64,000 nucleotides of DNA from Escherichia phage CJY920. Positions 16,113 to 41,176 of the stretch are shown here, in pieces. The first letter of the stretch is position 1; each line of letters starts with the position of its first letter. The notes below the pieces were generated by a model. That model was not told the origin of the DNA. It worked only from the letters and a program-made list of their open reading frames with translations, and did not search any database. Made by a program: the position numbers and the translations under genes. Location: sequence record PQ349265.1; one strand, written 5' to 3'.

Positions 16113-16490
16113 ATGTATACTGGTAGAAAGTATGAACTTGTTCCAAGACTTATTGATACATTTATTAATTATAGTCCACGTTCTAATTCATCAATAGTTA
16201 AAGCTATTCGAGATAATGGCGGATGGTTTGAAGTTAAAGAAGTTTCCGTCGCCAATGGATACAAAGCAGTAAAACACATTGAATGTGCAAATGGAAAGCA
16301 TTTTTATCTCAAAGATAGACTTTTAGAAATTTGCGAAGATGAATTTCATTGTTTTCGTGAGTATAAAGAACCGACTTCTGAAGATGAAGTCGAAGACAAG
16401 GTTTCTGGCGTAACAAAAATTCACTGCATTGTTGACGAAAACAATGTAGACGAAATCATTGAACTTTTGCGAAAAACTTTCAAAAAGTAG
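16113..16490 (+). CDS. hypothetical protein (125 aa)
   Basis: ATG with GAGGA SD; flanked by terminator-like hairpin and next promoter. Confidence 0.5.
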   Translation: MYTGRKYELVPRLIDTFINYSPRSNSSIVKAIRDNGGWFEVKEVSVANGYKAVKHIECANGKHFYLKDRLLEICEDEFHCFREYKEPTSEDEVEDKVSGVTKIHCIVDENNVDEIIELLRKTFKK

Positions 16491-16520
16491 TTTACAGAAG
16501 GGTAGTAGTGTGATACTATT
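16490..16520 (+). promoter_or_regulatory. early promoter
   Basis: GTTTAC at 16490 and TGATACTAT extended -10. Confidence 0.5.
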
Positions 16521-16544
16521 ACCCTATCAACTAAGGATAATAAA

Positions 16545-16787
16545 ATGAGATTACAACGTCAGAGCATTAAAGATTCAGAAGTTAGAGGTAAATGGTATTT
16601 TAATATCATCGGTAAAGACGCTGAACTTGTTGAAAAAGCTGAACATCTTTTACGTGATATGGGATGGGAAGATGAATGTGATGGATGCCCTCTTTATGAG
16701 GATGGAGAAAGCGCAGGATTCTGGATTTACCATTCTGACGTTGAACAGTTTAAAGCTGATTGGAAAATTGTGAAAAAGTCTGTTTAA
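16545..16787 (+). CDS. hypothetical protein (80 aa)
   Basis: ATG with AAGGA SD. Confidence 0.5.
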   Translation: MRLQRQSIKDSEVRGKWYFNIIGKDAELVEKAEHLLRDMGWEDECDGCPLYEDGESAGFWIYHSDVEQFKADWKIVKKSV

Positions 16788-19782: not shown

Positions 19783-22047
19783 ATGCAATTAATTAATGTT
19801 ATCAAAAGTAGTGGTGTTTCTCAGAGCTTTGACCCGCAAAAAATTATTAAAGTTTTATCTTGGGCAGCTGAAGGAACATCTGTAGATCCTTATGAATTAT
19901 ATGAAAATATTAAATCATATCTCCGTGATGGAATGACAACTGATGACATTCAAACCATTGTAATTAAGGCTGCTGCGAATTCTATTTCAGTTGAAGAGCC
20001 TGATTATCAATACGTAGCTGCACGCTGTTTAATGTTTGCTCTTCGTAAACACGTGTACGGACAGTATGAGCCCCGTTCATTTATTGACCATATTTCTTAC
20101 TGTGTAAATGAAGGTAAATACGACCCTGAACTGTTGTCAAAATATTCAGCAGAAGAAATTACATTTTTAGAATCAAAAATTAAGCACGAACGGGATATGG
20201 AATTTACTTATTCCGGGGCGATGCAATTAAAAGAAAAATATCTCGTTAAAGATAAAACCACTGGTCAAATTTATGAAACTCCACAGTTTGCATTTATGAC
20301 TATTGGAATGGCATTGCATCAAGATGAACCTGTTGACAGATTAAAACATGTTATTCGTTTTTATGAAGCAGTATCTACTCGACAGATTTCATTGCCAACT
20401 CCTATTATGGCTGGTTGTCGTACTCCGACTCGGCAATTTAGTTCATGCGTTGTTATTGAGGCAGGTGATTCGCTGAAGTCTATCAACAAAGCTTCTGCTT
20501 CAATTGTTGAGTATATTTCTAAACGAGCCGGAATCGGCATTAACGTTGGTATGATTCGTGCCGAAGGTTCTAAGATTGGCACAGGTGAAGTACGCCATAC
20601 TGGTGTTATTCCTTTTTGGAAACATTTTCAGACTGCTGTTAAATCATGCTCACAGGGTGGAATTCGTGGCGGCGCTGCTACTGCTTATTATCCTATTTGG
20701 CATTTGGAAGTTGAAAATCTTCTCGTTTTGAAAAATAACAAAGGCGTAGAAGAAAACCGTATCCGTCATATGGATTATGGTGTCCAGCTGAATGATTTGA
20801 TGATGGAACGTTTTGGAAAGAACGATTACATTACTTTGTTTAGTCCACATGAAATGGGTGGCGAACTTTATTATTCTTATTTTAAAGACCAAGACCGTTT
20901 CCGTGAATTATACGAAGCTGCAGAAAAAGACCCTAATATTCGTAAAAAGCGCATTAAAGCCCGTGAACTGTTTGAATTGCTCATGACTGAACGCTCAGGA
21001 ACAGCAAGGATTTATGTACAGTTCATTGATAATACGAATAACTATACTCCATTTATTCGTGAAAAGGCACCTATTCGTCAGAGTAACTTGTGCTGTGAAA
21101 TTGCTATTCCAACAAATGATGTGAATGGACCTGACGCTGAAGTGGGCCTCTGCACTCTTTCTGCCTTTGTTCTTGATAACTTCGATTGGCAAGACCAAGA
21201 TAAAATTAATGAATTAGCAGAAGTCCAAGTTCGCGCTCTTGATAATCTTTTGGATTACCAAGGATATCCAGTTCCTGAAGCAGAAAAAGCTAAAAAGCGT
21301 CGAAATCTTGGTGTAGGTGTTACTAACTATGCAGCTTGGCTGGCAAGTAACTTTGCTTCTTATGAAGATGCTAACGATTTAACACATGAACTATTTGAGA
21401 GATTACAGTATGGGCTCATTAAAGCATCCATTAAGCTCGCCAAAGAAAAAGGACCTTGCGAATATTATTCAGACACTCGTTGGTCTCGAGACGAATTACC
21501 TATCGACTGGTACAATAAAAAGATTGACCAAATCGCAGCTCCAAAATACGTTTGTGACTGGTCGTCGCTGCGGGAAGACCTTAAGCTCTTTGGCATCCGT
21601 AATAGCACATTATCAGCACTTATGCCATGTGAGTCATCTTCCCAAGTTTCTAACAGTACAAACGGTATCGAGCCTCCACGTGGACCAGTCTCGGTTAAAG
21701 AATCAAAAGAGGGTTCCTTTAATCAAGTCGTGCCCAATATTGAACATAACATAGACCTCTATGATTATACATGGAAATTAGCTAAGAAAGGTAATAAACC
21801 TTATCTTACGCAGGTAGCTATTATGCTTAAATGGGTATGTCAATCAGCTTCAGCGAATACATATTATGACCCGCAGATTTTTCCAAAAGGAAAGGTTCCA
21901 ATGTCTGTAATGATTGATGACATGCTATACGGATGGTATTATGGCATTAAAAACTTCTATTATCATAATACTCGTGATGGTTCCGGTACTGATGATTACG
22001 AAATAGAAACTCCAAAAGCTGAAGATTGTTCATCCTGTAAATTATGA
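19783..22047 (+). CDS. nrdA: ribonucleotide reductase large subunit (754 aa)
   Basis: From ATG 19783 (SD GAGGA): MQLINVIKSSGVSQSFDPQKI...; class Ia RNR alpha motifs; the ORF-track N-terminal extension from 19696 is rejected. Confidence 0.9.
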   Translation: MQLINVIKSSGVSQSFDPQKIIKVLSWAAEGTSVDPYELYENIKSYLRDGMTTDDIQTIVIKAAANSISVEEPDYQYVAARCLMFALRKHVYGQYEPRSFIDHISYCVNEGKYDPELLSKYSAEEITFLESKIKHERDMEFTYSGAMQLKEKYLVKDKTTGQIYETPQFAFMTIGMALHQDEPVDRLKHVIRFYEAVSTRQISLPTPIMAGCRTPTRQFSSCVVIEAGDSLKSINKASASIVEYISKRAGIGINVGMIRAEGSKIGTGEVRHTGVIPFWKHFQTAVKSCSQGGIRGGAATAYYPIWHLEVENLLVLKNNKGVEENRIRHMDYGVQLNDLMMERFGKNDYITLFSPHEMGGELYYSYFKDQDRFRELYEAAEKDPNIRKKRIKARELFELLMTERSGTARIYVQFIDNTNNYTPFIREKAPIRQSNLCCEIAIPTNDVNGPDAEVGLCTLSAFVLDNFDWQDQDKINELAEVQVRALDNLLDYQGYPVPEAEKAKKRRNLGVGVTNYAAWLASNFASYEDANDLTHELFERLQYGLIKASIKLAKEKGPCEYYSDTRWSRDELPIDWYNKKIDQIAAPKYVCDWSSLREDLKLFGIRNSTLSALMPCESSSQVSNSTNGIEPPRGPVSVKESKEGSFNQVVPNIEHNIDLYDYTWKLAKKGNKPYLTQVAIMLKWVCQSASANTYYDPQIFPKGKVPMSVMIDDMLYGWYYGIKNFYYHNTRDGSGTDDYEIETPKAEDCSSCKL

Positions 22048-22063
22048 TATAATTACCACAAGG

Positions 22064-23656
22064 ATGTGGTTAACTAAGAATAACGCTATGTTTGATAATA
22101 TATACAAAAACGGAAAGTTTCTTCCATTTGGAGAAGAAAAACTTAAATCTAGACTAACAGAAGAAGATAAAGCTCTTCTAACTGATGGAATAGATTTTAA
22201 GCTCAATGTGTTCCAAATTATGGAAGGCATTGACATTAACGATCTAAAATGTGCAGTTTGTGGAAATTTCATTTCTCTGAAAACAGCAAAGAAACGTGTA
22301 TTTCCAGCAACATGTAGTAAATCCTGCTCAGGGATATTTTTCGCGGATAAGAGAATTCAAAGCCGTGATACAAATTTTGGCGGAAAAGAAAAATATAAAA
22401 AATATTTGTCTGAACTTCAACACAAAAATTCTTTAGAAAAATATGGAACAACTCATCAAAAAATTTCAAGAAATAAAAATAGAAAAACTTTAATTGAACG
22501 ATATGGGGTAACGCATAATTCACAATTAGAAAGTGTGAAAGAAGCGAGAAAAGTTATAGAAAACGGTAAATCAGTTGATATTCTGAATTCTAAAAAATCT
22601 CGCGAAAAATCTAAGAAGACTAAATTAAATTGGACTGAAGAATATAAGGCATCGTTATATTCATCTATAGGAAAATCTATTAAAAATAACGGTCATATTA
22701 ATCATGATATACTAGATAAAATCAATTACAAAATTTCTATAGAAGAACTACAACAATTAGCAAATTGTTCTCGGATGACGGCTTATAGAGCTCTTTCATC
22801 CAAAGGACTAATTGACGTTCATTATACTCAAAGTTCTATAGAGCAATTCATTTTAGATCTAGGATTTGATTGCGTAGAAACTAGAAAAATTATTCCTCCG
22901 TATGAATTAGATATTTACATTCCTGAGAAAAAATTGGCTATAGAATACGATGGAATTTATTGGCATTCTAGCGGGTCAAAGGAAACAGATAAAATTAAAG
23001 AAACTTATCATTTGATGAAGACAGAGATGTGTGAAGCACAAGGAATTCAATTACTTCACATCTTCGAAAATGAATGGATTGATGATACAAAAAGAGAGAT
23101 CTGGAAATCCATTATAAAGCATAAATTAGGATTATCAGAAAGAATACCAGCCCGAAAATGCAAAGCACGGTTTGTTAATAAGGATGAGGCAAAAGAATTT
23201 ATTAATAAGAATCATCTTCAAGGATTTTGCTCAGGAGCTCATACGTATAAAGGACTTTATTACAATAATGAGTTAGTTCAAATTATTTCTATCGGTAAAT
23301 CTAGATATAGCTCAGGTGATGAACTTTTAAGGATGTGTTCAAAATTAGGGGTTTGTGTTGTAGGAGGAGCCTCAAAATTATTAAAAGGAATTAATTGTCT
23401 ATCTTATGGCAATCGAAGATGGTGCAGTACATTATCAAATGTTTATGACTCTGTCATGGAATTTAGTCATATCTCTGAGCCATGTTATTGGTACGTCGAT
23501 AAAGGAGAGGTATTTCACCGCTCAAGCTATATGAAACATAAGCTTAAAAACAAGCTTAAAAATTATGATGATACAATAACTGAAGTAGAAAATTGTTATG
23601 CAAATGGTCTTAGAAGAATCTGGGACTGTGGAAATTTAGTTTACAGGACAAAATAA
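22064..23656 (+). CDS. putative free-standing homing endonuclease (530 aa): zinc-finger-like N-terminus, tandem YG-TH repeats, Vsr/DUF559-like nuclease core
   Basis: Cys cluster CAVCGNF...CSKSCSG; repeats EKYGTTHQKIS / ERYGVTHNSQ; core PYELDIYIPEKKLAIEYDGIYWHS...GIQLLHIFENEW resembles DUF559/Vsr-type PD-(D/E)xK nucleases; sits at the nrdA-nrdB position where T4 has mobE. Confidence 0.55.
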   Translation: MWLTKNNAMFDNIYKNGKFLPFGEEKLKSRLTEEDKALLTDGIDFKLNVFQIMEGIDINDLKCAVCGNFISLKTAKKRVFPATCSKSCSGIFFADKRIQSRDTNFGGKEKYKKYLSELQHKNSLEKYGTTHQKISRNKNRKTLIERYGVTHNSQLESVKEARKVIENGKSVDILNSKKSREKSKKTKLNWTEEYKASLYSSIGKSIKNNGHINHDILDKINYKISIEELQQLANCSRMTAYRALSSKGLIDVHYTQSSIEQFILDLGFDCVETRKIIPPYELDIYIPEKKLAIEYDGIYWHSSGSKETDKIKETYHLMKTEMCEAQGIQLLHIFENEWIDDTKREIWKSIIKHKLGLSERIPARKCKARFVNKDEAKEFINKNHLQGFCSGAHTYKGLYYNNELVQIISIGKSRYSSGDELLRMCSKLGVCVVGGASKLLKGINCLSYGNRRWCSTLSNVYDSVMEFSHISEPCYWYVDKGEVFHRSSYMKHKLKNKLKNYDDTITEVENCYANGLRRIWDCGNLVYRTK

Positions 23657-24331
23657 TGAGTACAGTTTTTAATACTAAACAGGTCGATGTTTTAAAAGAA
23701 CCTATGTTTTTTGGTTCAGGTCTTGGTATTGCGCGTTATGATATTCAACGGCATCGAGTATTTGAAGAACTTATTGAACGTTCGCTCTCGTTTTTCTGGC
23801 GTCCGGAAGAAGTAAACTTGATGATGGATGCTGCACAGTTTAATAAGCTTCCTCAGTATCAACAAAATATTTTTACTAATAATCTGAAGTATCAATCATT
23901 ACTTGATAGTATTCAAGGTCGTGCGCCGTCTGCTGTACTTATGCCATTGCTTTCAGACCCAAGCCTTGATACATGGGTTGCTACATGGACTTTTAGTGAA
24001 ACTATTCACAGTCGTTCATATACTCATATCATGCGAAATCTTTATACTGATCCATCGAAGGTATTTGATGAGATTGTACTAGATGAAGCTATCATGAAAC
24101 GTGCTGAATCTATCGGTCGCTATTATGATGATGTTCTGACTAAAACCCGTGAATGGGAAAATGCTAAAGAATTTACAGAACTAGCTAAAGAATCTCCTGA
24201 TGCTGTTTTTCGTTTAAATCGAGCTATTAAACAAGAAGCCGAAGCTAAACGTGCTTTAATGAAATCTCTTTACCTCTGTTTGCATGTTATCAACGCATTG
24301 GAAGCTATTCGTTTTTATGTATCTTTCGCGT
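23656..24331 (+). CDS. nrdB: ribonucleotide reductase small subunit, exon 1
   Basis: ...NALEAIRFYVSFA then T of a split Cys codon; R2 signature as in E. coli NrdB. Confidence 0.85.
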
Positions 24332-24640
24332 AAAATGCGCCTTTAAGCAGTAATGCTTATCGAAAACTCCTTTAATTGCTGGAAAATCCAGAAATGGAAA
24401 ACTAGCAGCCAAGGTTTTGCTTGCACCTTTAATTAGTATCATATTATAAATATGATTATACTTTTAAGAGGATGCACAATTGCAAAGCAAGGTTCAACGA
24501 CTAGTCTTCGGACGTAGGGTCAAGCGACTCGAAATGGGGAGAATCCCTCTGGGATTGTGATATAGTCTGGTCTGCATAGTAATATGTAGCAGTTCATAAG
24601 AGAACGGGTTGAGAATTAGCGAGCTCAATCGAACATAACG
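24332..24640 (+). ncRNA. group I self-splicing intron in nrdB, ORF-less (about 309 nt; boundaries within a few nt)
   Basis: Core GTAGGGTCAAGCGACTCGAAA and GATATAGTCTGGTCTGCAT paralogous to the td intron core; ends ...GAACATAACG; no ORF inside. Confidence 0.7.
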
Positions 24641-25143
24641 GTACCTTTAACTTCCATAAGAACATGGAAATCATGGAAGGTAATGCCAAGATTATGAAGT
24701 TCATTGCTCGTGATGAACAGCTTCACCTTAAGGGTACCCAATATATTATTCGTCAACTTCAATCCGGTACTGATGGTGATGAATGGGTTAAAATTGCTCA
24801 AGAGTGTGAACAAGAAGCAGTTGATATTTTCATGGAAGTTAACCGTCAAGAAAAAGACTGGGCAGTTCATTTATTTAAAGATGGTGATGTTCCTGGATTA
24901 AATACAAATAGCATGTGGAGCTTTATTGATTACTTAACTGTATCTCGTATGAAACAGTGTGGTCTTCCATGCCCAATTACCGATGCTCCGGTTAAACATC
25001 CATATCCTTGGATTCGTGAATACCTTAATTCTGATAATGTTCAATCCGCGCCACAAGAAGTAGAACTATCATCTTACCTTGTAGCACAGATTGATAATGA
25101 TGTTGATGATAAAGTTATGATGAGTTTTAAAAAATATTTTTAA
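24641..25143 (+). CDS. nrdB: ribonucleotide reductase small subunit, exon 2
   Basis: Splice restores [36 protein letters not shown]..., homologous to E. coli [24 protein letters not shown]... Confidence 0.85.
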
Positions 25144-25170
25144 GGAGTGGGCCGCAAGGCCCATTTTATT

Positions 25171-25173
<3 letters not shown>
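25141..25173 (+). promoter_or_regulatory. SD (AGGAG) - GNRA hairpin - AUG arrangement at denA (split RBS and/or nrdB terminator)
   Basis: AGGAG 25143-47, hairpin TGGGCC-GCAA-GGCCCA 25148-63, TTTTATT, ATG 25171. Confidence 0.5.
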
Positions 25174-26758
<1,585 letters not shown>

Positions 26759-26761
26759 GCT

Positions 26762-26814
26762 GTTTACAAGTTCCTCATGTTGTGTTATAGTAGTCTTACT
26801 GACATAACATGAGG
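26762..26814 (+). promoter_or_regulatory. early promoter with embedded 9-bp inverted repeat (copy A), upstream of alc
   Basis: GTTTAC 26762-67, extended -10 TGTTATAGT; arms CCTCATGTT (26773-81) and AACATGAGG (26806-14), the latter overlapping the alc SD GAGGA. Confidence 0.6.
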
Positions 26815-26822
26815 ACTTTATG

Positions 26823-27326
26823 ATGGATTTGCAGCTTATTACTACTGAGATGGTCGTTGAAGCATACGGTGATACTACAGATGGGATTTCTGTGTTTAAA
26901 GGAAATCGTCGAGTTGGATATATCACCGATCTTAAGAAAGATTTAGCTAAGCAAGTCAAGCGGAAAACGACCATTAAAGAATATCGAAATCGTCGTCTTG
27001 AGCAAGCCCGTGATATGCTTCCTGATGCAGTTGAGGAGATGAAAGTCTTTTTAGAAAATCAGCTTGCGAAATATGATTGTGATGTGTTCATTAATCAGAC
27101 TCAACCTAATGTTCACATTAATAGTTGTAAATGTTACATCATCGTTAATCCTTTGACGGGAAAACATCGTCTTGGAATTAGTAATCCAAATCGTAGTGCA
27201 TCAGATATGGCAGAAGATGTTGAGGCATGCTTTAAAATTTCTAAATCTCCGGCTGAACATCACATTTTAATTAACGGTCTTTCTCAAGACGATATTGTAG
27301 AGGTTATTAAAACTTTATGCATGTAA
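26823..27326 (+). CDS. alc: Alc, transcription termination on cytosine-containing DNA (167 aa)
   Basis: 167 aa; position between rnlA and the spanin genes as in T4. Confidence 0.8.
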   Translation: MDLQLITTEMVVEAYGDTTDGISVFKGNRRVGYITDLKKDLAKQVKRKTTIKEYRNRRLEQARDMLPDAVEEMKVFLENQLAKYDCDVFINQTQPNVHINSCKCYIIVNPLTGKHRLGISNPNRSASDMAEDVEACFKISKSPAEHHILINGLSQDDIVEVIKTLCM

Positions 27327-27670
27327 GTAATTTTACAGCTGGATTGCTATTACTTGTAATAGCATTTGGCGGAACATCTATTATTTTAAAAAATAAGGTA
27401 GAAAGATTAGAAACATCGGTTACTGAAATTACAAAAACGGCCAATGAAAACGCTTTAGCATTAAATAATTTGCGAATTCAGTATAATTATATTGATGCGA
27501 TGAATAATAAAAATCGTGAGGCAATTGCTGCTATTGAGCGTGAAAATGAAAAACTGCGCAAAGACGCAAAGAAGGCGGATGTGGTGGCTCATAAGCCAGG
27601 ATTGGTTGAAAAACAAATCAACAACTCCTTCAACAAGTTCGCAGAAGACATCCAGGACCTTTCTAAATGA
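27317..27670 (+). CDS. pseT.3: i-spanin (inner-membrane spanin subunit), PseT.3-like (117 aa)
   Basis: N-terminal TM helix FTAGLLLLVIAFGGTSIIL followed by coiled-coil-like periplasmic domain; immediately precedes a lipoprotein gene. Confidence 0.7.
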   Translation: MHVSNFTAGLLLLVIAFGGTSIILKNKVERLETSVTEITKTANENALALNNLRIQYNYIDAMNNKNREAIAAIERENEKLRKDAKKADVVAHKPGLVEKQINNSFNKFAEDIQDLSK

Positions 27671-27966
27671 TTAAACTATCGGCAGTAATATTATCTATTG
27701 GTCTTCTAGTTGGTTGTTCGACAAAGCCTCTAGAAGTAAAGAAAGAAACAGTTCATCCTAATTGGCCTGTGCAAATAAAGTCATATGACGAAGCTAAACT
27801 ATCTTGGCAAGTTAAAGTTATTGATGGTAAAGCTTGGGTCGGTATGCCATTCGAAGATTCTCAGGAATTTCGTATTTGGCTTAATGATGTAAAACGATAT
27901 GTACATGACCAAAAAACTATGATATGTTATTATCGTCAAGAGCTAAAAGAGGATAAATGTAAATGA
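27667..27966 (+). CDS. pseT.2: o-spanin (outer-membrane lipoprotein spanin subunit), PseT.2-like (99 aa)
   Basis: Signal peptide with lipobox LLVGC|S (MIKLSAVILSIGLLVGCSTKP); start overlaps i-spanin stop. Confidence 0.7.
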   Translation: MIKLSAVILSIGLLVGCSTKPLEVKKETVHPNWPVQIKSYDEAKLSWQVKVIDGKAWVGMPFEDSQEFRIWLNDVKRYVHDQKTMICYYRQELKEDKCK

Positions 27967-28187
27967 TTTCATGGCATCAATTTGAACATCTCAAAGGATT
28001 GATTTATGAATCTGAGATGGCTGCAATGATTTATGGACGCCAGATTCAACGATTAGAATCTTTACCTCCAACTAATGATGTTTTATTAGCTCAATCACGT
28101 GCTAATCTCAAAAATGAATATCAAAATAAGTGGGGTAAAGCATCTAAAGACCTGCATGATTATATTCAATCATTGGTTGAGAAATAA
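27963..28187 (+). CDS. hypothetical protein (74 aa)
   Basis: ATG overlapping previous stop. Confidence 0.45.
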   Translation: MISWHQFEHLKGLIYESEMAAMIYGRQIQRLESLPPTNDVLLAQSRANLKNEYQNKWGKASKDLHDYIQSLVEK

Positions 28188-28190
28188 TAA

Positions 28191-29415
<1,225 letters not shown>

Positions 29416-29416
<1 letters not shown>

Positions 29417-29613
29417 TGGCGTGGCATCATGAAACTTGGTCTATTGTTATTGTAAATAGTGGTTTAGTTGGTACTAGTAATGGGCAATTTTGTGTATTCA
29501 CTAGTGAAATCAGAGCTTGGGAGGAATGCCTTAAATTAAGAGAAAAGAATCCTGATGTTGAACTAACAGTAAAGAAAACTAAACTGCCTTTACCATGGAA
29601 AACTTATGAATAA
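29416..29613 (+). CDS. hypothetical small protein (65 aa)
   Basis: ATG overlapping pseT stop (TAATG), GGAG SD; ORF-track start at 29386 lies inside pseT. Confidence 0.4.
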
Positions 29614-29806
29614 CATAGAAAAGATTTATCAACTTTGCGATAAAATTGAAAAAGAAAAGAAATATCTATTTTGTTTATGGCCTATTGTTGATGGAAGAAT
29701 AGACTTAGATATTCTTGATTATGAAACAGAAGACATAGTAGATGGTTCAACTTTTGATAATGCGTTGGATGTTATTAATTGGCTTGAAGAAAATTATGTG
29801 GGGTGA
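29606..29806 (+). CDS. hypothetical small protein (66 aa)
   Basis: ATG ORF in the pseT-cd small-gene cluster. Confidence 0.45.
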   Translation: MNNIEKIYQLCDKIEKEKKYLFCLWPIVDGRIDLDILDYETEDIVDGSTFDNALDVINWLEENYVG

Positions 29807-29808
29807 AT

Positions 29809-30084
29809 ATGTTTCCGACTTATTCTAAAATCGTAGAAGTAGTGTTTAGCCAAATTATCGCTAATAACATGTTTGAAAAGCTTGATAACGCAGCTGAGCT
29901 TCGAATTCATGCTCAAGTGACTCATGTATTGAACACTTTGCTTCCAGACCAGGTGGATTCTATTGCAATTACGCTGTATCCAGGTTCCGCGCATATCATT
30001 GTCGTATTCGGTCTTGATGCTGAGCTAGTCATCAAAGGCGATATTCGCTTTGAATCACAGACATCAGAATTCAAAGCAATTTAA
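29809..30084 (+). CDS. hypothetical small protein (91 aa)
   Basis: First ATG of ORF whose track start is GTG 29803. Confidence 0.45.
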   Translation: MFPTYSKIVEVVFSQIIANNMFEKLDNAAELRIHAQVTHVLNTLLPDQVDSIAITLYPGSAHIIVVFGLDAELVIKGDIRFESQTSEFKAI

Positions 30085-30086
30085 TG

Positions 30087-30116
30087 GTTTACTTTATGGT
30101 AGAGTTGTGATATTAT
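30087..30116 (+). promoter_or_regulatory. early promoter
   Basis: GTTTAC 30087-92, TGATATTAT extended -10. Confidence 0.5.
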
Positions 30117-30147
30117 AGCTCTACCAAAACAAATGAGGAAAAACAAA

Positions 30148-30402
30148 ATGCTAAGTGAAAAACCAATTACTGTTAAAGAATTCCAAGAAAAAGTTAAACT
30201 ATTTGCTCAGGAATTGGTAAATAAGGTTTCTGAACGATTTCCTGAAACATCGGTTCGTGTTATTACCGAGACTCCTCGTTCAGTATTAGTAATTGTGAAT
30301 CCAGGTGATGGTGACCAAATAACACATCTCAAATTGGATTTTGATGGATTAGTTGAAGCACAAAGGGTGTATGGCGACTATGATGAATTTAACTTGATAT
30401 AA
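30148..30402 (+). CDS. hypothetical small protein (84 aa)
   Basis: ATG 30148 with GAGGA SD. Confidence 0.45.
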   Translation: MLSEKPITVKEFQEKVKLFAQELVNKVSERFPETSVRVITETPRSVLVIVNPGDGDQITHLKLDFDGLVEAQRVYGDYDEFNLI

Positions 30403-30482
30403 TTGATAATTGTCTTGAAAATGATACTGGCGATCATAGAGCGCTTGATTCTGAAACAGCGCAGTTCATTAGAATAACTTTA

Positions 30483-30719
30483 ATGAACGATACTCTAGTG
30501 AACAGTATTCATCCTTCTGTGTATGATGCTATTATTGTGACGAAGTATCCAGTTGAGCTTCACAAAAAGATGGCTGGTGCAATTTTTATTGATAAGAAAA
30601 ACCGCTTTAAAGACGGGCAGAATATAATTAGTTCTGTTATTAAAAGTATAACTAAACTTCGTCACGAAATTTATCGTGTTGAAACTGCTAAATCTGCTTA
30701 TCTGGTGATTATGAAATGA
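30483..30719 (+). CDS. hypothetical small protein (78 aa)
   Basis: ATG ORF; stop overlaps cd start. Confidence 0.45.
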   Translation: MNDTLVNSIHPSVYDAIIVTKYPVELHKKMAGAIFIDKKNRFKDGQNIISSVIKSITKLRHEIYRVETAKSAYLVIMK

Positions 30720-31297
30720 AAGCGAGTACAGTACTTCAAATTGCATATTTAGTATCACAAGAATCAAAATGTTGCTCCTGGAAGGTAGGAGCAGTAATTG
30801 AAAAGAATGGACGTATTATTTCTACTGGATATAACGGTTCTCCGGCAGGTGGTGTGAATTGCTGTGATTATGCTGCCGAGCAAGGTTGGTTGCTGAATAA
30901 GCCTAAACATACTATCATTCAAGGTCATAAGCCCGAATGTGTATCGTTTGGTTCAACTGATCGTTTTGTCTTGGCGAAAGAACACCGTAGCGCTCACTCT
31001 GAATGGTCGTCTAAAAATGAAATTCATGCTGAACTAAATGCGATTTTGTTTGCTGCACGAAATGGTTCTTCAATTGAAGGTGCTACTATGTATGTAACAC
31101 TTTCTCCTTGCCCAGATTGCGCAAAAGCGATAGCTCAATCTGGTATTAAAAAGCTGGTTTATTGCGAAACATACGATAAAAATAAACCTGGCTGGGATGA
31201 TATTCTGCGAAATGCAGGTATTGAAGTGTTCAATGTTCCTAAGAAAAACTTGAATAAGTTAAACTGGGAAAATATCAACGAATTCTGTGGTGAATAA
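30716..31297 (+). CDS. cd: dCMP deaminase (193 aa)
   Basis: Zinc-binding deaminase motifs HAELNAILFAARNG and SPCPDCA; 193 aa as T4 Cd. Confidence 0.9.
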   Translation: MKASTVLQIAYLVSQESKCCSWKVGAVIEKNGRIISTGYNGSPAGGVNCCDYAAEQGWLLNKPKHTIIQGHKPECVSFGSTDRFVLAKEHRSAHSEWSSKNEIHAELNAILFAARNGSSIEGATMYVTLSPCPDCAKAIAQSGIKKLVYCETYDKNKPGWDDILRNAGIEVFNVPKKNLNKLNWENINEFCGE

Positions 31298-31533
31298 TGA
31301 AATTTCGTTTGGTAAAGCTCACAGCAATTAGTTCTTATTCTAACGAGAACATCTCATTTGCTGTAGAGTATAAGAAATATTTTTTCTCTAAATGGAAGCA
31401 GTATTATAAGTCAGAATGGGTTTGTATTGATAGACCATATAGTTGGAAATCTGATTTAGAAAAATGCCAAAAACTGCTTTCCACACTTAAAGAACGTGGA
31501 ACAACCCATATTAAAACCGTGATAGGTAAATAA
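31297..31533 (+). CDS. hypothetical protein (78 aa)
   Basis: ATG overlapping cd stop. Confidence 0.5.
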   Translation: MKFRLVKLTAISSYSNENISFAVEYKKYFFSKWKQYYKSEWVCIDRPYSWKSDLEKCQKLLSTLKERGTTHIKTVIGK

Positions 31534-31842
31534 ATGAAACTGACAACTAAGCAGAAGCAAGCAATTCGTGAAATTTTGAAAACTAAATTGTCCATGGGTA
31601 TTTCAAACGTGGTTTTTGAAAAGTCTGATGGTACTATTCGTACTATGAAAGGCACTCGTGATGCTGACTTTATGCCAACCATGCAAACCGGTAAATTGAC
31701 TGAATCTACTCGGAAAGAATCTATTGATATGATTCCAGTATTTGATGTTGAGCTTGGTGCATGGCGAGGCTTTTCTATTGACAAATTGATTTCCGTTAAT
31801 GGTATGAAAGTTGAGCATTTGCTTCAATTTATTGGTAAATAA
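31534..31842 (+). CDS. hypothetical protein (102 aa)
   Basis: ATG ORF upstream of gene 31. Confidence 0.5.
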   Translation: MKLTTKQKQAIREILKTKLSMGISNVVFEKSDGTIRTMKGTRDADFMPTMQTGKLTESTRKESIDMIPVFDVELGAWRGFSIDKLISVNGMKVEHLLQFIGK

Positions 31843-31870
31843 ATGCTTTAAGAATTATTTGTTATTATTA
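31842..31870 (+). promoter_or_regulatory. middle promoter (MotA box ATGCTTTA, -10 TATTAT) for gene 31
   Basis: TGCTT at 31844-48 and TATTAT about 19 bp downstream. Confidence 0.55.
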
Positions 31871-31898
31871 ACTCATCTGTTAACAAAAAGGAAAAACG

Positions 31899-32234
31899 AT
31901 GTCTGAAGTACAACAGCTACCAATTCGTGCTGTCGGTGAATATGTTATTTTAGTTTCTGAACCTGCACAAGCCGGTGATGAAGAAGTTACAGAATCAGGA
32001 CTTATTATCGGTAAACGTGTCCAAGGTGAAGTTCCTGAACTGTGTGTAATTCACTCTGTTGGTCCTGATGTTCCTGAAGGTTTCTGCGAAGTTGGTGATT
32101 TGACTTCTCTTCCAGTTGGTCAAATTCGAAACGTTCCGCATCCTTTTGTAGCTCTGGGTCTTAAGCAGCCAAAAGAAATTAAACAAAAATTCGTTACTTG
32201 TCACTATAAAGCTATTCCGTGTCTTTATAAGTGA
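31899..32234 (+). CDS. 31: gp31 co-chaperonin (GroES-like), 111 aa
   Basis: [61 protein letters not shown]...; 111 aa as T4 gp31. Confidence 0.85.
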
Positions 32235-32381
32235 TATAAATAATAATATGAATTGGGTGTCGGAATAATAAGTTAACCGAACAATTCTACGTGGTAGTCT
32301 ACAACTGAGAGATCTGTCGAAAGAAGATGAAATTCAGAAGAACGTGACTACCGAGTTTTAATCTCTAACGAGAATTTTTAA

Positions 32382-32630
32382 ATGATTAAACAATTACAAC
32401 ACGCTCTTGAACTGCAACGAAACGCATGGAATAATGGTCACGAAAACTATGGTGCATCTATTGATGTTGAAGCCGAAGCTCTTGAAATCCTGCGTTATTT
32501 CAAACATCTGAATCCTGCTCAAACTGCACTAGCTGCCGAGCTTCAGGAAAAAGATGAACTTAAGTATGCTAAGCCTCTGGCTTCTGCTGCACGAAAAGCA
32601 GTTCGTCACTTTGTGGTAACACTGAAATAA
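32382..32630 (+). CDS. rIII: RIII lysis-inhibition accessory protein (82 aa)
   Basis: 82 aa; MIKQLQHALELQRNAWNNGHENYG...; position after gene 31. Confidence 0.8.
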   Translation: MIKQLQHALELQRNAWNNGHENYGASIDVEAEALEILRYFKHLNPAQTALAAELQEKDELKYAKPLASAARKAVRHFVVTLK

Positions 32631-33028
32631 TTTATTGGAGAGTCACTGCCTTAGTGTGAAGTTAAAACGAGGAGCCGTCGAACTGTCTGATTAATGATTT
32701 GCGAATCATTATAGTTTTAAGACCCCGGCAGTTTTACGGTGTACCTCTTGAATGTTATTCTTATAGCGGCAAGTGCATGCTACCCCGAGGTGATGGCCAA
32801 TCGGGAGTACGCCTCAAGGCCTATATATCCATCAGTATATATCTTATCCTCGAGAAATCGAACCCGGAACCTTTAAGCTAACGGTGTGCAACAGATAAGA
32901 GCTATAAGGTATGATGACGGGTTTATGGTTATCCTGGTCGTTAAATATCCAAAAACCTATGTTCCCCTTGAGGGCTTGCGCAGGCAATGCCAATAAGTCC
33001 TGCATTTTCATTTAAAAGAGAATTTATA

Positions 33029-33205
33029 ATGGCAAAACAAGCTAAAGCAAAGAAAGCAGTTGAAAAGAAAGTTGGTGATTCTAAACGCGCTGGTTACAAG
33101 CGTGGGTCGAACTCTCGTATCAATCAAACTGTTGAGAAGATCATGCGCCGAGCACGTGCGGTTCTTCGAGATGATGCTTCTCGTTTTGGTAAGCAGAAAG
33201 CATAA
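33029..33205 (+). CDS. small highly basic protein (58 aa), function unknown
   Basis: MAKQAKAKKAVEKKVGDSKRAGYKRGSNSRINQTVEKIMRRARAVLRDDASRFGKQKA; SD-like AAAAGAG; followed by a terminator. Confidence 0.4.
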   Translation: MAKQAKAKKAVEKKVGDSKRAGYKRGSNSRINQTVEKIMRRARAVLRDDASRFGKQKA

Positions 33206-33210
33206 GTTGA

Positions 33211-33236
33211 GGACTCCTTCGGGAGTCCTTTTTTAT
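33211..33236 (+). terminator. intrinsic terminator
   Basis: GGACTCC-TTCG-GGAGTCC hairpin followed by TTTTTTATTTT. Confidence 0.75.
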
Positions 33237-33258
33237 TTTCCAAAGATTGCACAAAGTT

Positions 33259-33291
33259 GTTTACAGTATGGTTCCTTTGTGATAGTATTAT
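33259..33291 (+). promoter_or_regulatory. early promoter
   Basis: GTTTAC 33259-64 and TGATAGTATTAT -10 region. Confidence 0.5.
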
Positions 33292-33315
33292 CTTACACAA
33301 ACAAAGGAGAATAAA

Positions 33316-33366
33316 ATGAAAACGATTAATCGGGTTACGGTCATTGGGCTGATGTTGAAATTATAA
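33316..33366 (+). CDS. 16-codon upstream ORF (MKTINRVTVIGLMLKL) with strong SD, candidate leader peptide
   Basis: AAGGAGA SD 5 nt upstream of the ATG; stop lies 9 nt before the SD-less ATG of the NADAR-like ORF. Confidence 0.35.
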   Translation: MKTINRVTVIGLMLKL

Positions 33367-33375
33367 GTATTGAAA

Positions 33376-33834
33376 ATGTCTGAGCTAGAAATAAGAAGCA
33401 ATTTTAGATGGCCATCATGTGCATTAAGCAATTTCGCCCAATGGCCTTTCGTTATGGATGGTATCCAATTTGGAGGTCTCGAAGGATTCCTCCAAGGATG
33501 TAAGGTGAAAAATGTTGAACAGCAAAGACGTATATTTGGGTTATCCGGGCTTGCCGCCCAACAAGCTGGAAGGTCTTATGCTAGAGCTCAGGACCGTGGC
33601 ACGTTGTTCTGGCTTGGAACTCCGTTTTCAAGATATTCCGAAGCATGGAAAGAATTATACACAAATGCATATTTTGAAGCAGCGATCCAAAACAGGGGTT
33701 TTCGTGATGCATTACAAGCCTCGAAAGGAAAAGTTTTGAAGCACAGCATGGCTAGTGGTCTAACAAAAGATGATACAATACTAACCGAAGCTGAATTTAT
33801 TGATGTGTTAAACCTATTAAGAGACTCTCTATGA
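33376..33834 (+). CDS. NADAR (YbiA/DUF1768-like) domain protein, 152 aa
   Basis: Motif LSNFAQWPFVMDGIQF...EGFLQGCK parallels E. coli YbiA FSNFAAWPIKVDGKTW...EHYFQAQK as recalled; ORF-track start is TTG 33370; ATG at 33376. Confidence 0.55.
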   Translation: MSELEIRSNFRWPSCALSNFAQWPFVMDGIQFGGLEGFLQGCKVKNVEQQRRIFGLSGLAAQQAGRSYARAQDRGTLFWLGTPFSRYSEAWKELYTNAYFEAAIQNRGFRDALQASKGKVLKHSMASGLTKDDTILTEAEFIDVLNLLRDSL

Positions 33835-34679
33835 AGCCAACTATTTTGACTGATATTGATGGAGTATGTTTAAGCTGGCAATCAGGCCTTCCTTATTTTG
33901 CTCAGAAATATAATCTTCCGTTAGAACATATTTTAAAAATGATCCAAGATGAGAAATTTATTTCTCCAGGTAAACTCTTTAATTGTGATGAAGAACTTGG
34001 TGTCAAGTTAATTGAAAAATACAATCGTTCAGATTTTATTCGTTACTTGTCTCCGTATAAAGATGCCCTGTGTGTAATTAACAAATTAAAAGAAGATTAT
34101 AATTTTGTAGCTGTTACAGCATTGGGTGATTCTATTGATGCTCTATTAAATCGTCAATTTAATTTGAATGCTCTTTTTCCTGGTGCCTTCTCAGAAGTAA
34201 TGATGTGTGGTCATGATTCTTCAAAAGAAGAGTTGTTTAAAAAGGCAAAAGAGAAATATAACGTAATTTGTTATATTGACGATCTCGCTCACCACTGCGA
34301 CCACGCGAGTGAAATATTAAATGTTCCGGTTTATTGGATGGCTCGAGGAGAACGTGACAATATTCCAAAAACTGCTCAGCGAGTTTATACATGGAATGAT
34401 GTAGAAAATAAGCTTTTTTCGCCGAAGGAAAATAAAGAAAGTTTTGATAGTGAAAAAGCTATAAAAGATTTAATTGAGAAGATGGTTAAAAACGATTCTT
34501 TTCCTTGGAACACTACCTGGAGAACGCCTGGATTAAATCCTTATAATCATCTATATCATCTATATCATCCATATCAGACACATCCGTTTCAGACATGGAA
34601 CTATATTAAACCTGGTGGCATAGAGTATTTGTATAATAGACCTACTAGTGGTGATAATATTTTTCAAGGAGCATTCTAA
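33831..34679 (+). CDS. HAD-superfamily hydrolase, 5'(3')-deoxyribonucleotidase-like (282 aa)
   Basis: N-terminal motif I ILTDIDGV (DxDGV); start overlaps upstream stop (ATGA); aromatic/His-rich C-terminal tail. Confidence 0.5.
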   Translation: MKPTILTDIDGVCLSWQSGLPYFAQKYNLPLEHILKMIQDEKFISPGKLFNCDEELGVKLIEKYNRSDFIRYLSPYKDALCVINKLKEDYNFVAVTALGDSIDALLNRQFNLNALFPGAFSEVMMCGHDSSKEELFKKAKEKYNVICYIDDLAHHCDHASEILNVPVYWMARGERDNIPKTAQRVYTWNDVENKLFSPKENKESFDSEKAIKDLIEKMVKNDSFPWNTTWRTPGLNPYNHLYHLYHPYQTHPFQTWNYIKPGGIEYLYNRPTSGDNIFQGAF

Positions 34680-34948
34680 TGTTTGTTGTTCATACTATTT
34701 ATGAAAATGAAGATAATACTACACGTGATTACGGTCACGTAAATCAATTTTTTAGATGCAATCCAGAATTCCGTGCTCAAAAAGACGAACGAATTTTTAA
34801 AAAATGTGTAGAACAAGGTTTCATTTACGTCAAGCACTGGATGCAAGGAAATAAAGTTAGAACTACATATCATAAGTCTTTGCCTGAGCTTAATGATGAA
34901 TTGATTTATAATAGAAATGTAAATCAAACTCTGAAGGATGAACAATGA
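34679..34948 (+). CDS. hypothetical protein (89 aa)
   Basis: ATG overlapping previous stop; precedes ligase. Confidence 0.5.
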   Translation: MFVVHTIYENEDNTTRDYGHVNQFFRCNPEFRAQKDERIFKKCVEQGFIYVKHWMQGNKVRTTYHKSLPELNDELIYNRNVNQTLKDEQ

Positions 34949-36405
34949 TTCTTAAAATTCTGAATGAAATAGCATCTATTGGATCAACTAAGCAGAAGCA
35001 AGCAATTCTTGAAAAGAATAAAGATAATGAATTGCTTAAACGAGTATATCGTCTGACTTATTCTCGTGGGTTACAGTATTATATCAAGAAATGGCCTAAG
35101 CCTGGTATTGCTACCCAGAGTTTTGGAATGCTGACCATTACCGATATGCTTGACTTTATTGAATTTACGTTAGCTACTCGGAAATTGACTGGAAATGCAG
35201 CAATTGAGGAATTAACTGGATATATCACTGATGGTAAAAAGGATGATGTTGAAGTTTTGCGTCGAGTTATGATGCGAGACCTTGAATGCGGTGCTTCAGT
35301 ATCTATTGCAAATAAAGTTTGGCCAGGTTTAATTCCTGAACAACCTCAAATGCTGGCAAGTTCTTATGATGAAAAAGGCATTAGTAAGAATATCAAGTTT
35401 CCAGCTTTTGCCCAGTTAAAAGCTGATGGGGCTCGGTGTTTTGCTGAAGTCAGAGGAGATGAATTAGATGATGTTCGTCTTTTATCACGAGCTGGTAATG
35501 AATATCTAGGATTAGATCTTCTTAAGGAAGAGTTAATCAAAATGACCGCTGAAGCCCGCCAGATTCATCCAGAAGGTGTGTTAATTGATGGCGAATTGGT
35601 ATACCATGAGCAAGTTAAAAAGGAACCAGAAGGCCTAGATTTTCTTTTTGACACTCCTGAAATTAGCAAAGCTAAAGACTTCGCAGAAGTAGCTGAATCT
35701 CGTACTGCTTCTAATGGAATCGCTAATAAATCTTTAAAGGGAACTATTTCTGAAAAAGAAGCTCAATGCATGAAGTTTCAGGTCTGGGATTATGTCCCGT
35801 TGGTAGAAATATACGGTCTTCCGGCGTTTCGTTTAAAATATGATGTACGTTTTTCTAAACTAGAACAAATGACATCAGGATATGATAAAGTAATTTTAAT
35901 TGAAAACCAGGTAGTAAATAACCTAGATGAAGCTAAGGTAATTTATAAAAAGTATATTGACCAAGGTCTTGAAGGTATTATTCTCAAAAATACCGATGGA
36001 TTGTGGGAAAATGCTCGTTCAAAAAATCTCTATAAATTTAAAGAAGTAATTGATGTTGATTTAAAAATTGTAGGAATTTATCCTCACCGTAAAGACCCTA
36101 CTAAAGCCGGTGGATTTATTCTTGAATCAGAATGTGGAAAAATTAAAGTAAATGCTGGTTCAGGCTTAAAAGATAAAGCCGGTGTAAAATCACATGAACT
36201 TGACCGTACTCGCATTATGGAAAACCAAAATTATTATATTGGAAAAATTCTAGAATGTGAATGCAACGGTTGGTTAAAATCTGACGGCCGCACTGATTAC
36301 GTTAAATTATTTCTTCCGATTGCGATTCGTTTACGTGAAGATAAAACTAAAGCTAATACATTCGAGGATGTATTTGGTGATTTTCATGAGGTAACTGGTC
36401 TATGA
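34945..36405 (+). CDS. 30: ATP-dependent DNA ligase (486 aa)
   Basis: MILKILNEIASIGSTKQKQAILEKNKDNELLKRVYRL...; adenylation motif KADGAR; size as T4 ligase. Confidence 0.9.
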   Translation: MILKILNEIASIGSTKQKQAILEKNKDNELLKRVYRLTYSRGLQYYIKKWPKPGIATQSFGMLTITDMLDFIEFTLATRKLTGNAAIEELTGYITDGKKDDVEVLRRVMMRDLECGASVSIANKVWPGLIPEQPQMLASSYDEKGISKNIKFPAFAQLKADGARCFAEVRGDELDDVRLLSRAGNEYLGLDLLKEELIKMTAEARQIHPEGVLIDGELVYHEQVKKEPEGLDFLFDTPEISKAKDFAEVAESRTASNGIANKSLKGTISEKEAQCMKFQVWDYVPLVEIYGLPAFRLKYDVRFSKLEQMTSGYDKVILIENQVVNNLDEAKVIYKKYIDQGLEGIILKNTDGLWENARSKNLYKFKEVIDVDLKIVGIYPHRKDPTKAGGFILESECGKIKVNAGSGLKDKAGVKSHELDRTRIMENQNYYIGKILECECNGWLKSDGRTDYVKLFLPIAIRLREDKTKANTFEDVFGDFHEVTGL

Positions 36406-36590
36406 AAGCTTACTTAGAAACAATTGTCATTGCTCAAAAAGAAGGTGGAGATGTTTCTACTTCTGTATCACAAGTCATTCTCGAATTTGTAGATGCATAT
36501 GCTTATAATAAATTTACAGAAACATTTGATGCCTATGAAAAAGGACCAAAGTTTGAAATATATCGTACTCTCTTACCACTAGATTACTAA
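36402..36590 (+). CDS. hypothetical small protein (62 aa)
   Basis: ATG overlapping ligase stop (ATGA). Confidence 0.45.
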   Translation: MKAYLETIVIAQKEGGDVSTSVSQVILEFVDAYAYNKFTETFDAYEKGPKFEIYRTLLPLDY

Positions 36591-36619
36591 AGGCCTTCGG
36601 GCCTTTAATTTTATAAATA
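36591..36619 (+). promoter_or_regulatory. terminator hairpin followed by late promoter TATAAATA for alt
   Basis: AGGCC-TTCG-GGCCT hairpin 36591-36604, then TATAAATA at 36612-19, 24 nt upstream of the alt ATG. Confidence 0.65.
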
Positions 36620-36642
36620 GAATAAACACTAGAGAGGATATG

Positions 36643-38736: not shown

Positions 38737-38739
38737 ATC

Positions 38740-40797: not shown

Positions 40798-40849
40798 TTT
40801 ACAAGTCCCTCGTGTTGTGTTATAATAATCTTACTGACATAACATGAGG
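40797..40849 (+). promoter_or_regulatory. early promoter with embedded inverted repeat (copy B)
   Basis: GTTTAC 40797-802, TGTTATAAT; arms CCTCGTGTT (40808-16) and AACATGAGG (40841-49); about 50 bp near-identical to 26762-26814. Confidence 0.6.
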
Positions 40850-40857
40850 AACACAAA

Positions 40858-41148
40858 ATGAAATCTTCTTTGCGCTTTTTAGGCCAAGAACTTGTAGTTG
40901 AAGGCGTTATTCCTGCTGATAACACTTTTAATGAAGCAGTTTATGATGAATTTATCAAAATTTTTGGAACAGATAAAAAGTTCGGAATTTTTCCTTCTGA
41001 AAATTTTTCAAAGCCAGAGCAGACTGAAAGCATTTTCCAGGGTGTAGTAACAGGTAAATTTGAGTCAGAAGCTCCGGTAAAAATTGAAGTTTATATTGAA
41101 GATAGTTTAGTTGCTTCAGTTTCCGCTTTTATTTCATTCCGTAAATAA
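40858..41148 (+). CDS. hypothetical protein (96 aa)
   Basis: ATG 8 nt after GAGGA; followed by a bidirectional terminator. Confidence 0.5.
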   Translation: MKSSLRFLGQELVVEGVIPADNTFNEAVYDEFIKIFGTDKKFGIFPSENFSKPEQTESIFQGVVTGKFESEAPVKIEVYIEDSLVASVSAFISFRK

Positions 41149-41154
41149 AAACAT

Positions 41155-41172
41155 GGGGACCTTTCGGTCCCC
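41155..41172. terminator. bidirectional terminator hairpin between the 96-aa ORF (+) and gene 54 (-)
   Basis: GGGGACC-TTTC-GGTCCCC with flanking T/A runs. Confidence 0.7.
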
Positions 41173-41176
41173 ATTG

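Follow-up and report, generated by a model that had tools for sequence, protein, structure and literature searches.

A hairpin that pairs the spacer of the alc early promoter with the alc Shine–Dalgarno region is a candidate translational switch in T4-like phages

Introduction

Early promoters of phage T4 are shut off within minutes, and the genes behind them are still transcribed from upstream. The sharp stop of early protein synthesis is partly explained by RegB cleavage and promoter shut-off. In front of alc, the gene for an inhibitor of host transcription, an inverted repeat is embedded in an early promoter and reaches the ribosome-binding site, which raises the question of whether the leader of an early gene can distinguish RNA started at its own promoter from RNA arriving from upstream. 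We analyzed this locus in a 64,000-nt stretch of Escherichia phage CJY920 (PQ349265.1), hereafter the window. A sequence-only reading had proposed that transcripts from the alc promoter leave the Shine–Dalgarno (SD) sequence free, while longer transcripts carry both arms of the repeat and could sequester it. Our analysis leads us to consider it rather probable that alc is translatable solely from transcripts of its own early promoter and that read-through RNA is silent.

Results

Layout and stability of the alc element

The window belongs to Tequatrovirus (T4-like): the 2-kb region around the element matches ~500 Tequatrovirus genomes at 95–98% identity. Its plus strand corresponds to the direction of T4 early transcription, and the genes on this strand run from rnlA through alc to pseT.3 (Rz) and onwards. 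The end of rnlA lies 3 nt upstream of the −35 of the alc promoter, and the region is laid out as follows.

25635–26758, plus strand: rnlA (gene 63, RNA ligase 1), an ORF with an ATG start whose T4 homologue is annotated as rnlA
26762–26767, plus strand: −35 of the alc early promoter, GTTTAC (sequence)
26768–26786, plus strand: hairpin 5′ arm, AAGU.CCUCAUGUUGUGUU, which holds the anti-SD CCUC and occupies the promoter spacer (RNA fold)
26786–26791, plus strand: −10, TATAGT, with GTGT directly before it (TG-extended; promoter scan)
26798, plus strand: predicted transcription start site (TSS), an A 7 nt past the −10, in the loop region (spacing rule)
26801–26818, plus strand: hairpin 3′ arm, GACAUAACAUGAGGACUU (RNA fold)
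26811–26815, plus strand: alc SD, GAGGA, wholly in the 3′ arm (sequence and RNA fold)
26820–27326, plus strand: alc (inhibitor of host transcription), an ORF with adjacent ATGs at 26820 and 26823

The second ATG is the alc start in the T4 annotation, and GAGGA sits 4 and 7 nt ahead of the first and second ATG, respectively. The promoter is of the early type typical of T4 (GTTTAC-N18-TATAGT). As the earlier reading had it, the left arm of the repeat lies within the promoter spacer, all 18 nt of which are filled by the hairpin 5′ arm, and the right arm lies over the alc SD. The repeat itself is where it had been reported and larger than claimed. A repeat search returned arms of 14 nt, 26772–26785 (TCCTCATGTTGTGT) and 26802–26815 (ACATAACATGAGGA), which are 93% complementary and 16 nt apart, and the perfect core comprises 10 bp (TCCTCATGTT/AACATGAGGA) rather than 9 bp. 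All sequence-level elements of that interpretation are supported.

In RNA, 26768–26786 would pair with 26801–26818 in a stem of ~19 bp, with a small additional inner stem, spanning both the spacer and the −10. The read-through hairpin has a computed energy of −24.8 kcal/mol (z = −4.4 versus shuffles), and RNA initiated at the predicted start (A26798) reaches only −4.8 kcal/mol and is no more stable than its shuffles. The alc hairpin is tied for third most stable when 56-nt folds are slid along both strands of the window (31,972 folds; mean −7.2, sd 3.5); this ranking and the shuffles led us to reject a chance origin. An intrinsic terminator is poorly supported, because the hairpin lacks a U-tract and is not called by a terminator scan. 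The late-promoter motif TATAAATA was not found near 26762–26820, and the promoter is classed as early, not as gp55 late. An Rfam search of 25000–41500 at E ≤ 1 returned nothing at either copy of the element (the second copy is described below) and two sub-threshold matches elsewhere in that range. The T4 equivalent of the predicted alc start lies at ~136300 on the minus strand; T4 has been the subject of a dRNA-seq study (bioRxiv 10.1101/2024.04.04.588121, GSE255091).

Two other structures lie further upstream. The most stable fold of the window is an 18-bp hairpin with several G·U pairs on the minus strand at 25041–25096 (−27.4 kcal/mol, z = −6.5), antisense to the early genes and located in the 3′ end of an nrdB-like ORF; the plus strand reaches only −14.4 kcal/mol there. 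On the plus strand at 25142–25174, a GGGCC-gcaa-GGCCC hairpin followed by a T-run lies between AAGGAG and the denA ATG at 25172. This hairpin could terminate nrdB transcripts or be a split ribosome site like those of T4 genes 25 and 38, and the T4 annotation starts denA at a GTG within it.

Accessibility of the ribosome site in long and short RNA

The terminator scan called no plus-strand terminator-like site in 22000–31000. Any complete rnlA or alt transcript would therefore have to cross the cassette, and read-through from upstream into the alc leader is expected from the sequence. A candidate middle promoter resembling a MotA box, GATGCTTCC-N12-TACTAT, lies at 25583–25607 on the plus strand, 5′ of rnlA (ATG 25635). 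rnlA has no entry among the identified T4 middle promoters in Table 1 of Hinton 2010.

We next compared long and short RNA by the opening cost, defined as the ensemble energy needed to make the SD-to-AUG stretch single-stranded. For alc, the opening cost was 20.8–21.4 kcal/mol in read-through RNA carrying 25, 100 or 200 nt of upstream sequence and 3.9–4.5 kcal/mol in RNA from the predicted TSS. With the predicted TSS between the arms, the computed difference of ~4 versus ~21 kcal/mol agrees with the proposal that the SD would be free in RNA from the promoter and sequestered in longer RNA. The same calculation gave 19.5 kcal/mol for T4 alc and, for the experimentally established T4 cases, 15.5 (e), 15.6 (gene 49), 14.3 (I-TevI) and 8.8 kcal/mol (soc). 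Unmasked T4 genes lay at 2.5–5.9 kcal/mol, for example rnlA at 2.5, gene 32 at 3.5 and motA at 4.5 kcal/mol. Judged by modelled opening cost, the alc hairpin would be at least as inhibitory as the known T4 examples.

A second copy of the element before alt.-3

The earlier reading had also reported that the element recurs 14 kb away, at 40797–40849. We found this second copy (copy B) as a 54-nt element at 40797–40850 that is identical to the alc copy at 50 of 54 positions and has unrelated flanks; a pattern search allowing 3 mismatches returned only these two copies in the window. It is placed between alt and a homologue of T4 alt.-3, a gene pair that lies 14 kb past alc; the alt.-3 homologue faces late gene 54 on the opposite strand.

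38740–40797, plus strand: alt (ADP-ribosyltransferase), the upstream neighbour, whose stop codon overlaps the copy B −35
40797–40802, plus strand: copy B −35, GTTTAC (sequence)
40805–40825, plus strand: copy B hairpin 5′ arm, including the G that forms a G·U pair (RNA fold)
40821–40826, plus strand: copy B −10, TATAAT (promoter scan)
40831–40852, plus strand: copy B hairpin 3′ arm, with the SD GAGGA at 40846–40850 (RNA fold)
40858–41148, plus strand: 96-aa ORF downstream of copy B, homologous to T4 alt.-3 (ORF and T4 annotation)

The predicted TSS of copy B lies at ~40833. In its 5′ arm, an A-to-G change breaks the inverted repeat at the DNA level, so that a repeat search misses copy B, and stays a G·U pair in RNA. 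The copy B hairpin (−21.4 kcal/mol) ranks fifth in stability among the 31,972 window folds, and the opening cost computed for alt.-3 of the window is 19.1 kcal/mol in read-through RNA versus 3.2 kcal/mol from the predicted TSS.

In ~500 Tequatrovirus records, every genome has exactly two copies of the 54-nt element, one at alc, the other at alt.-3, and no more; T4 carries both copies, which differ by one base. The alt.-3 homologues of Dhakavirus, Mosigvirus, Marfavirus, Kagamiyamavirus and Gaprivervirus are preceded by a different early promoter, which has a small hairpin within the spacer (e.g. ACACCACAAGGATGTGGT) and leaves the SD uncovered. Because the alt.-3 promoters of other genera are of this different type, the masking layout appears to be ancestral at alc and copied to alt.-3. 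From the sequence comparison, it looks like the original alt.-3 promoter gave way to the alc cassette in the ancestor of Tequatrovirus. GTTTACA and ACATGAGGA, motifs common to both promoter types, delimit the replaced tract, and exchange between these shared motifs could have produced the second copy. Such cassette exchange has been proposed for the promoter-early stem-loop (PeSL) cassettes of T4-type phages (PMC2839356, PMC4122927), and the event would amount to a transfer in the PeSL style.

An indel directly adjoins copy B. In T4, alt.-1 and alt.-2, which partially duplicate the alt start, lie between alt and the alt.-3 cassette (NC_000866 123033–123454). The window lacks both (40780–40800), and its alt ends in KKFKM*, the closing sequence of T4 alt.-2.

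Conservation of the pairing at alc across genera

We then compared alc upstream regions from IMG/VR contigs and 14 GenBank phages, picked at even steps along the tblastn ranking. Most sampled regions have a GTTTAC-N18-TAnnnT promoter 61–64 nt from the ATG. Complementarity between the spacer and the leader/SD is kept in nine genera of Straboviridae, and the arm sequences are lineage-specific.

Tequatrovirus: 5′ arm TCCCTCGTGTTGTGT, 3′ arm ACATAACATGAGGA
Gelderlandvirus: 5′ arm TCTCCGTTTAGTT, 3′ arm AACCAAACGGAGA
Karamvirus: 5′ arm TCTCCATTTGGTTGTGT, 3′ arm ACACTAACCAAATGGAGA
Kagamiyamavirus: 5′ arm TCCTCATTTTGTTG, 3′ arm CAACAAAATGAGGA
Bragavirus: 5′ arm ACCTCTCATTTTT, 3′ arm GAAAATGAGAGGT
Dhakavirus: 5′ arm TCTCCTCAT, 3′ arm ATGAGGAGA

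Winklervirus, Kanagawavirus CIP9 and a Klebsiella phage show the same layout, again with arm sequences of their own. Computed energies of the duplex between spacer and leader range from −14 to −24 kcal/mol in 11 of the 14 leaders sampled (in phages besides the window, 10 of 13), and shuffling of the spacer gave p ≤ 0.002 for the duplex energies. Column-wise covariation on a plain MAFFT alignment was dropped, since the genera differ by as much as 3 columns in helix register. It was replaced by an alignment of 13 sequences with gapless 14-nt arms, anchored at the CAU...AUG core by its invariant C/G pair. In this hand-fitted alignment, which leans towards the structure, includes four near-identical Tequatrovirus rows and omits three non-conforming lineages (TG1, PEi26 and NHEP10), 89% of the cells are standard pairs, versus 41–53% in registers slid by 1–3 columns. 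Changes on both sides are seen in 12 of the 14 pairs; at one such position, for instance, seven sequences have U-A, three have G-C and one has C-G. None of 500 shuffles attained the covariation score, the percentage paired or the double-change counts of the real alignment; its count of further pair types was reached in 21 of 500.

The outer pairs follow the flavour of the SD, with GAGGA matched by TCCTC, GGAGA by TCTCC and GAGAGG by CCTCTC. Across genera, several helix pairs are G·U, and such pairs favour a structure of the sense-strand RNA over a DNA palindrome. Taken together, the comparative data support selection for pairing between spacer and SD.

Other lineages depart from this layout to varying degrees. 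Strong hairpins across the −10 in Tegunavirus TG1 and Kanagawavirus PEi26 end 4–5 nt short of the SD, and phage NHEP10 has a small hairpin wholly within the spacer upstream of alc. The hairpins of these three phages stop short of the SD, and masking may therefore not be the sole role of the hairpin. At alc of Gaprivervirus, a terminator and a weak promoter are accompanied by a 10-bp SD-covering hairpin that starts directly after the −10, and in Acinetobacter phage 133 an SD-covering hairpin is followed by six U. On these sequences, a promoter-associated hairpin appears nearly universal at alc, and coverage of the SD is frequent, not universal.

Early promoters across the T4 genome

We reassembled the early strand of T4 (149 kb), predicted 36 cassettes running from an early promoter to a gene, and scored masking as the opening cost in read-through RNA minus that in TSS-initiated RNA. 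Masking is at least 9.5 kcal/mol in 10 of the 36 cassettes, with an eleventh that rounds to 9.5, and the distribution is bimodal. The ten and the eleventh are those of regB, alc, nrdC.8, alt.-3, ndd.4, modB, motB.2, 30.8, e.8, denV and mrh.2. Eight of these T4 cassettes, which lie outside the window, each have their own arm sequences and a masking of 9.5–16.6 kcal/mol (NC_000866, minus strand):

62797, minus strand: regB
53943, minus strand: nrdC.8
166807, minus strand: ndd.4
13186, minus strand: modB
8218, minus strand: motB.2
65413, minus strand: denV
15288, minus strand: mrh.2
70696, minus strand: e.8

Controls reached the same level in 2.5% of 1,260 chimeric combinations of upstream and downstream parts and in 2.9% of spacer-shuffled versions (binomial p ~5 × 10⁻⁸, or 5 × 10⁻⁷ with alt.-3 left out as a duplicate). 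The enrichment is confined to the upper tail of the masking distribution; across all 36 cassettes, the overall shift against the controls was not significant (Mann–Whitney p = 0.15 and 0.39). Regardless of the SD, 15 of the 36 cassettes fall in the lowest 5% of fold energies of random genomic 60-mers and 10 in the lowest 1%, with alc the strongest fold of all. Many of these early-promoter hairpins do not touch the SD, so the hairpin may have a more general role to which SD masking is secondary. By these folds, promoter hairpins are a general feature of T4 early promoters, which fits the PeSL concept, and a distinct subset of them masks the SD.

Discussion

The hairpin structure and its conservation with compensatory changes are solid, and folding shows a clear contrast between long and short RNA; from these we infer the function, along with the transcription start, the presence of read-through RNA, the block to translation and its timing. 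The element would act as a compact cassette of promoter, leader and ribosome site in which the spacer is the complement of the gene's own SD region. Polymerase starting between the arms would produce a leader of ~22 nt with the SD free, so that Alc could be made in the first minutes of infection. Transcripts entering from rnlA, or from alt at copy B, would carry both arms and fold locally into a hairpin of ~19 bp that buries the SD, leaving them silent for alc and alt.-3. Once the early promoters are off, translation of alc and alt.-3 would stop even though the region is still transcribed.

This arrangement resembles that of T4 e (lysozyme), soc, 49 and I-TevI, whose ribosome site is sequestered in long RNA and freed in RNA from an internal proximal promoter (PMC3014915). 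There, as predicted for alc, the 5′ arm lies upstream of the internal start and the 3′ arm over the SD or AUG, and the long RNA is closed and the short RNA open, at a computed 8.8–15.6 kcal/mol compared with ~19–21 kcal/mol for alc and alt.-3. Those genes differ in using gp55 late promoters (TATAAATA), whereas alc has a sigma-70 early promoter whose spacer is itself the 5′ arm. Their hairpins delay translation to late infection, whereas the effect predicted at alc is the reverse, restricting translation to the immediate-early phase. By sequence, alc matches this class in all testable features except the class of promoter, and by analogy the element would be an early-promoter version of the mechanism known from T4 late promoters. 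In Aeromonas phage Aeh1, a hairpin that hides the mobE ribosome-binding site (Gibb and Edgell 2009, as cited in PMC3014915) likewise masks the SD of a gene inside a longer transcription unit of a T4-type phage; mobE differs in being a homing-endonuclease gene and in having no early promoter embedded in the 5′ arm. SD masking at alc or at any early promoter is not described in the T4 reviews PMC3014915 and PMC2988021 or the PeSL papers PMC2839356 and PMC4122927, and an older mention is possible.

The alc element also carries hallmarks of the PeSL cassettes (Arbiol 2010, PMC2839356; Comeau 2014, PMC4122927): a strong sigma-70-type early promoter with an A/T-rich upstream region, a stable stem-loop that overlaps this promoter, and a 3′ end made up of an SD with its start codon. 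Like PeSLs, it is repeated within the genome, has an indel beside one copy (copy B) and shows signs of moving as a unit, the alc cassette having apparently been copied to alt.-3. PeSL stem-loops have been read as terminators or attenuators and as recombination sites, are usually G/C-rich and are not tied to the SD, and the authors place the T4 and PST stem-loops upstream of the promoter. The alc stem, in contrast, lies in the promoter, is defined by complementarity to the SD, lacks a U-tract and occurs only twice per genome.

A rather unlikely alternative is that the hairpin serves as a PeSL-type attenuator or insulator that halts or pauses incoming transcription or stabilises the 3′ end of the upstream mRNA; its overlap with the SD would then be a side effect of packing into a 60-nt intergenic space. 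PeSLs of RB49 and phi1 do consist of an early promoter with a stem-loop that lies between −35 and −10 or spans the −10, and they finish with an SD and a start codon; one such stem-loop lowered reporter expression as strongly as rrnB T1 (PMC2839356). The excess of hairpins over T4 early promoters (15 of 36 in the lowest 5%), many of which miss the SD, and the six U after the alc hairpin of Acinetobacter phage 133 point the same way. However, the hairpin lacks a downstream U-tract at alc (CUUUAUG) and alt.-3 (ACACAAAAUG) as well as in eight other genera, and it goes uncalled in the terminator scan. A terminator or stabiliser would not need outer pairs that track the flavour of the SD across genera, as they do here, and a hairpin can be accommodated wholly within the spacer, as the alt.-3 promoters of other genera demonstrate. 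Cleavage by host RNase III or another nuclease, separating the rnlA and alc messages, is most improbable: a stem of ~19 bp is within the size range of substrates, whereas homologous stems measure only 7–10 bp elsewhere (Roth80, KIT01) and nothing in the data indicates cleavage.

The hairpin could instead enforce translational coupling rather than silencing: a ribosome terminating at the rnlA stop codon would open the foot of the stem and expose the SD, and alc would be made from read-through RNA only when rnlA is translated. The rnlA stop runs into the −35 in most other genera (TAGTTTACA), where the anti-SD begins 6–7 nt after that stop, a distance within reach of a terminating ribosome; the alt stop also overlaps the −35 of copy B. 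In the window and in T4, though, the anti-SD CCUC begins 15 nt past the rnlA stop, which by our own footprint estimate is beyond the reach of the ribosome. A stem of ~19 bp would also quickly reform, and with spacing as the sole basis of the idea, coupling strikes us as clearly unlikely. A role at the level of DNA, as recombination substrate, cruciform or site for a dimeric regulator, or an origin as passive by-product of cassette duplication, appears very unlikely. The element is indeed duplicated, PeSL-like cassettes have been proposed as recombination sites (PMC2839356, PMC4122927), and shared promoter and SD motifs flank the conversion tract at alt.-3. Against this, the arms differ completely between genera and among the ten masked T4 cassettes, yet every arm fits the SD of its own gene, a pattern that no single binding protein would produce; the G·U pairs would be G·T or A·C mismatches in DNA; and the compensatory changes seen in nine genera are incompatible with a passive by-product.

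If the SD is masked in read-through RNA as proposed, the hairpin would provide a simple, protein-free timer for dosage-sensitive takeover functions (Alc, RegB and ModB) and account for the joint movement of promoter, leader and ribosome site as cassettes in T4-type genomes. In practice, a foreign promoter combined with the native upstream sequence would silence such genes when they are cloned or re-wired. More tentatively, an anti-SD in the promoter spacer may reflect a design general to the early genes of T-even phages and not peculiar to alc, acting as a genome-wide translational gate on about a quarter of T4 cassettes (regB, alc, modB, denV, motB.2, nrdC.8, ndd.4, 30.8, mrh.2 and alt.-3). 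Under such a gate, these cassettes would be translatable only from their own immediate-early transcripts, and host-takeover functions would be switched off once the early promoters shut down. Promoter and ribosome site would then be forced to co-evolve and to move as one cassette, which would give PeSL-type modules a functional reason.

Further early promoters on the plus strand of the window carry hairpins of their own. In the promoter at 33259–33316 the spacer includes an anti-SD (TTCCTTTGTG, pairing with CACAAACAAAGGAG), with an opening cost of ~9–10 kcal/mol in long RNA versus 0.5 kcal/mol in short RNA. Its T4 homologue is the cassette that precedes gene 30.8; in the window it is followed only by a 16-codon ORF, and the next gene starts at 33377. 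Repeats straddle the −10 at 16490–16545 (GGGTAGTAG...CTATTACCC, −15.9 kcal/mol) and at 30087–30148 (GGTAGAG...CTCTACC, −19 kcal/mol); both stop short of the SD and are PeSL-like hairpins. Finally, an early-promoter type with a small in-spacer hairpin (e.g. CCACAaggaTGTGG) recurs in several genera and at several T4 promoters, and is the type seen upstream of alt.-3 in other genera and upstream of alc in NHEP10.
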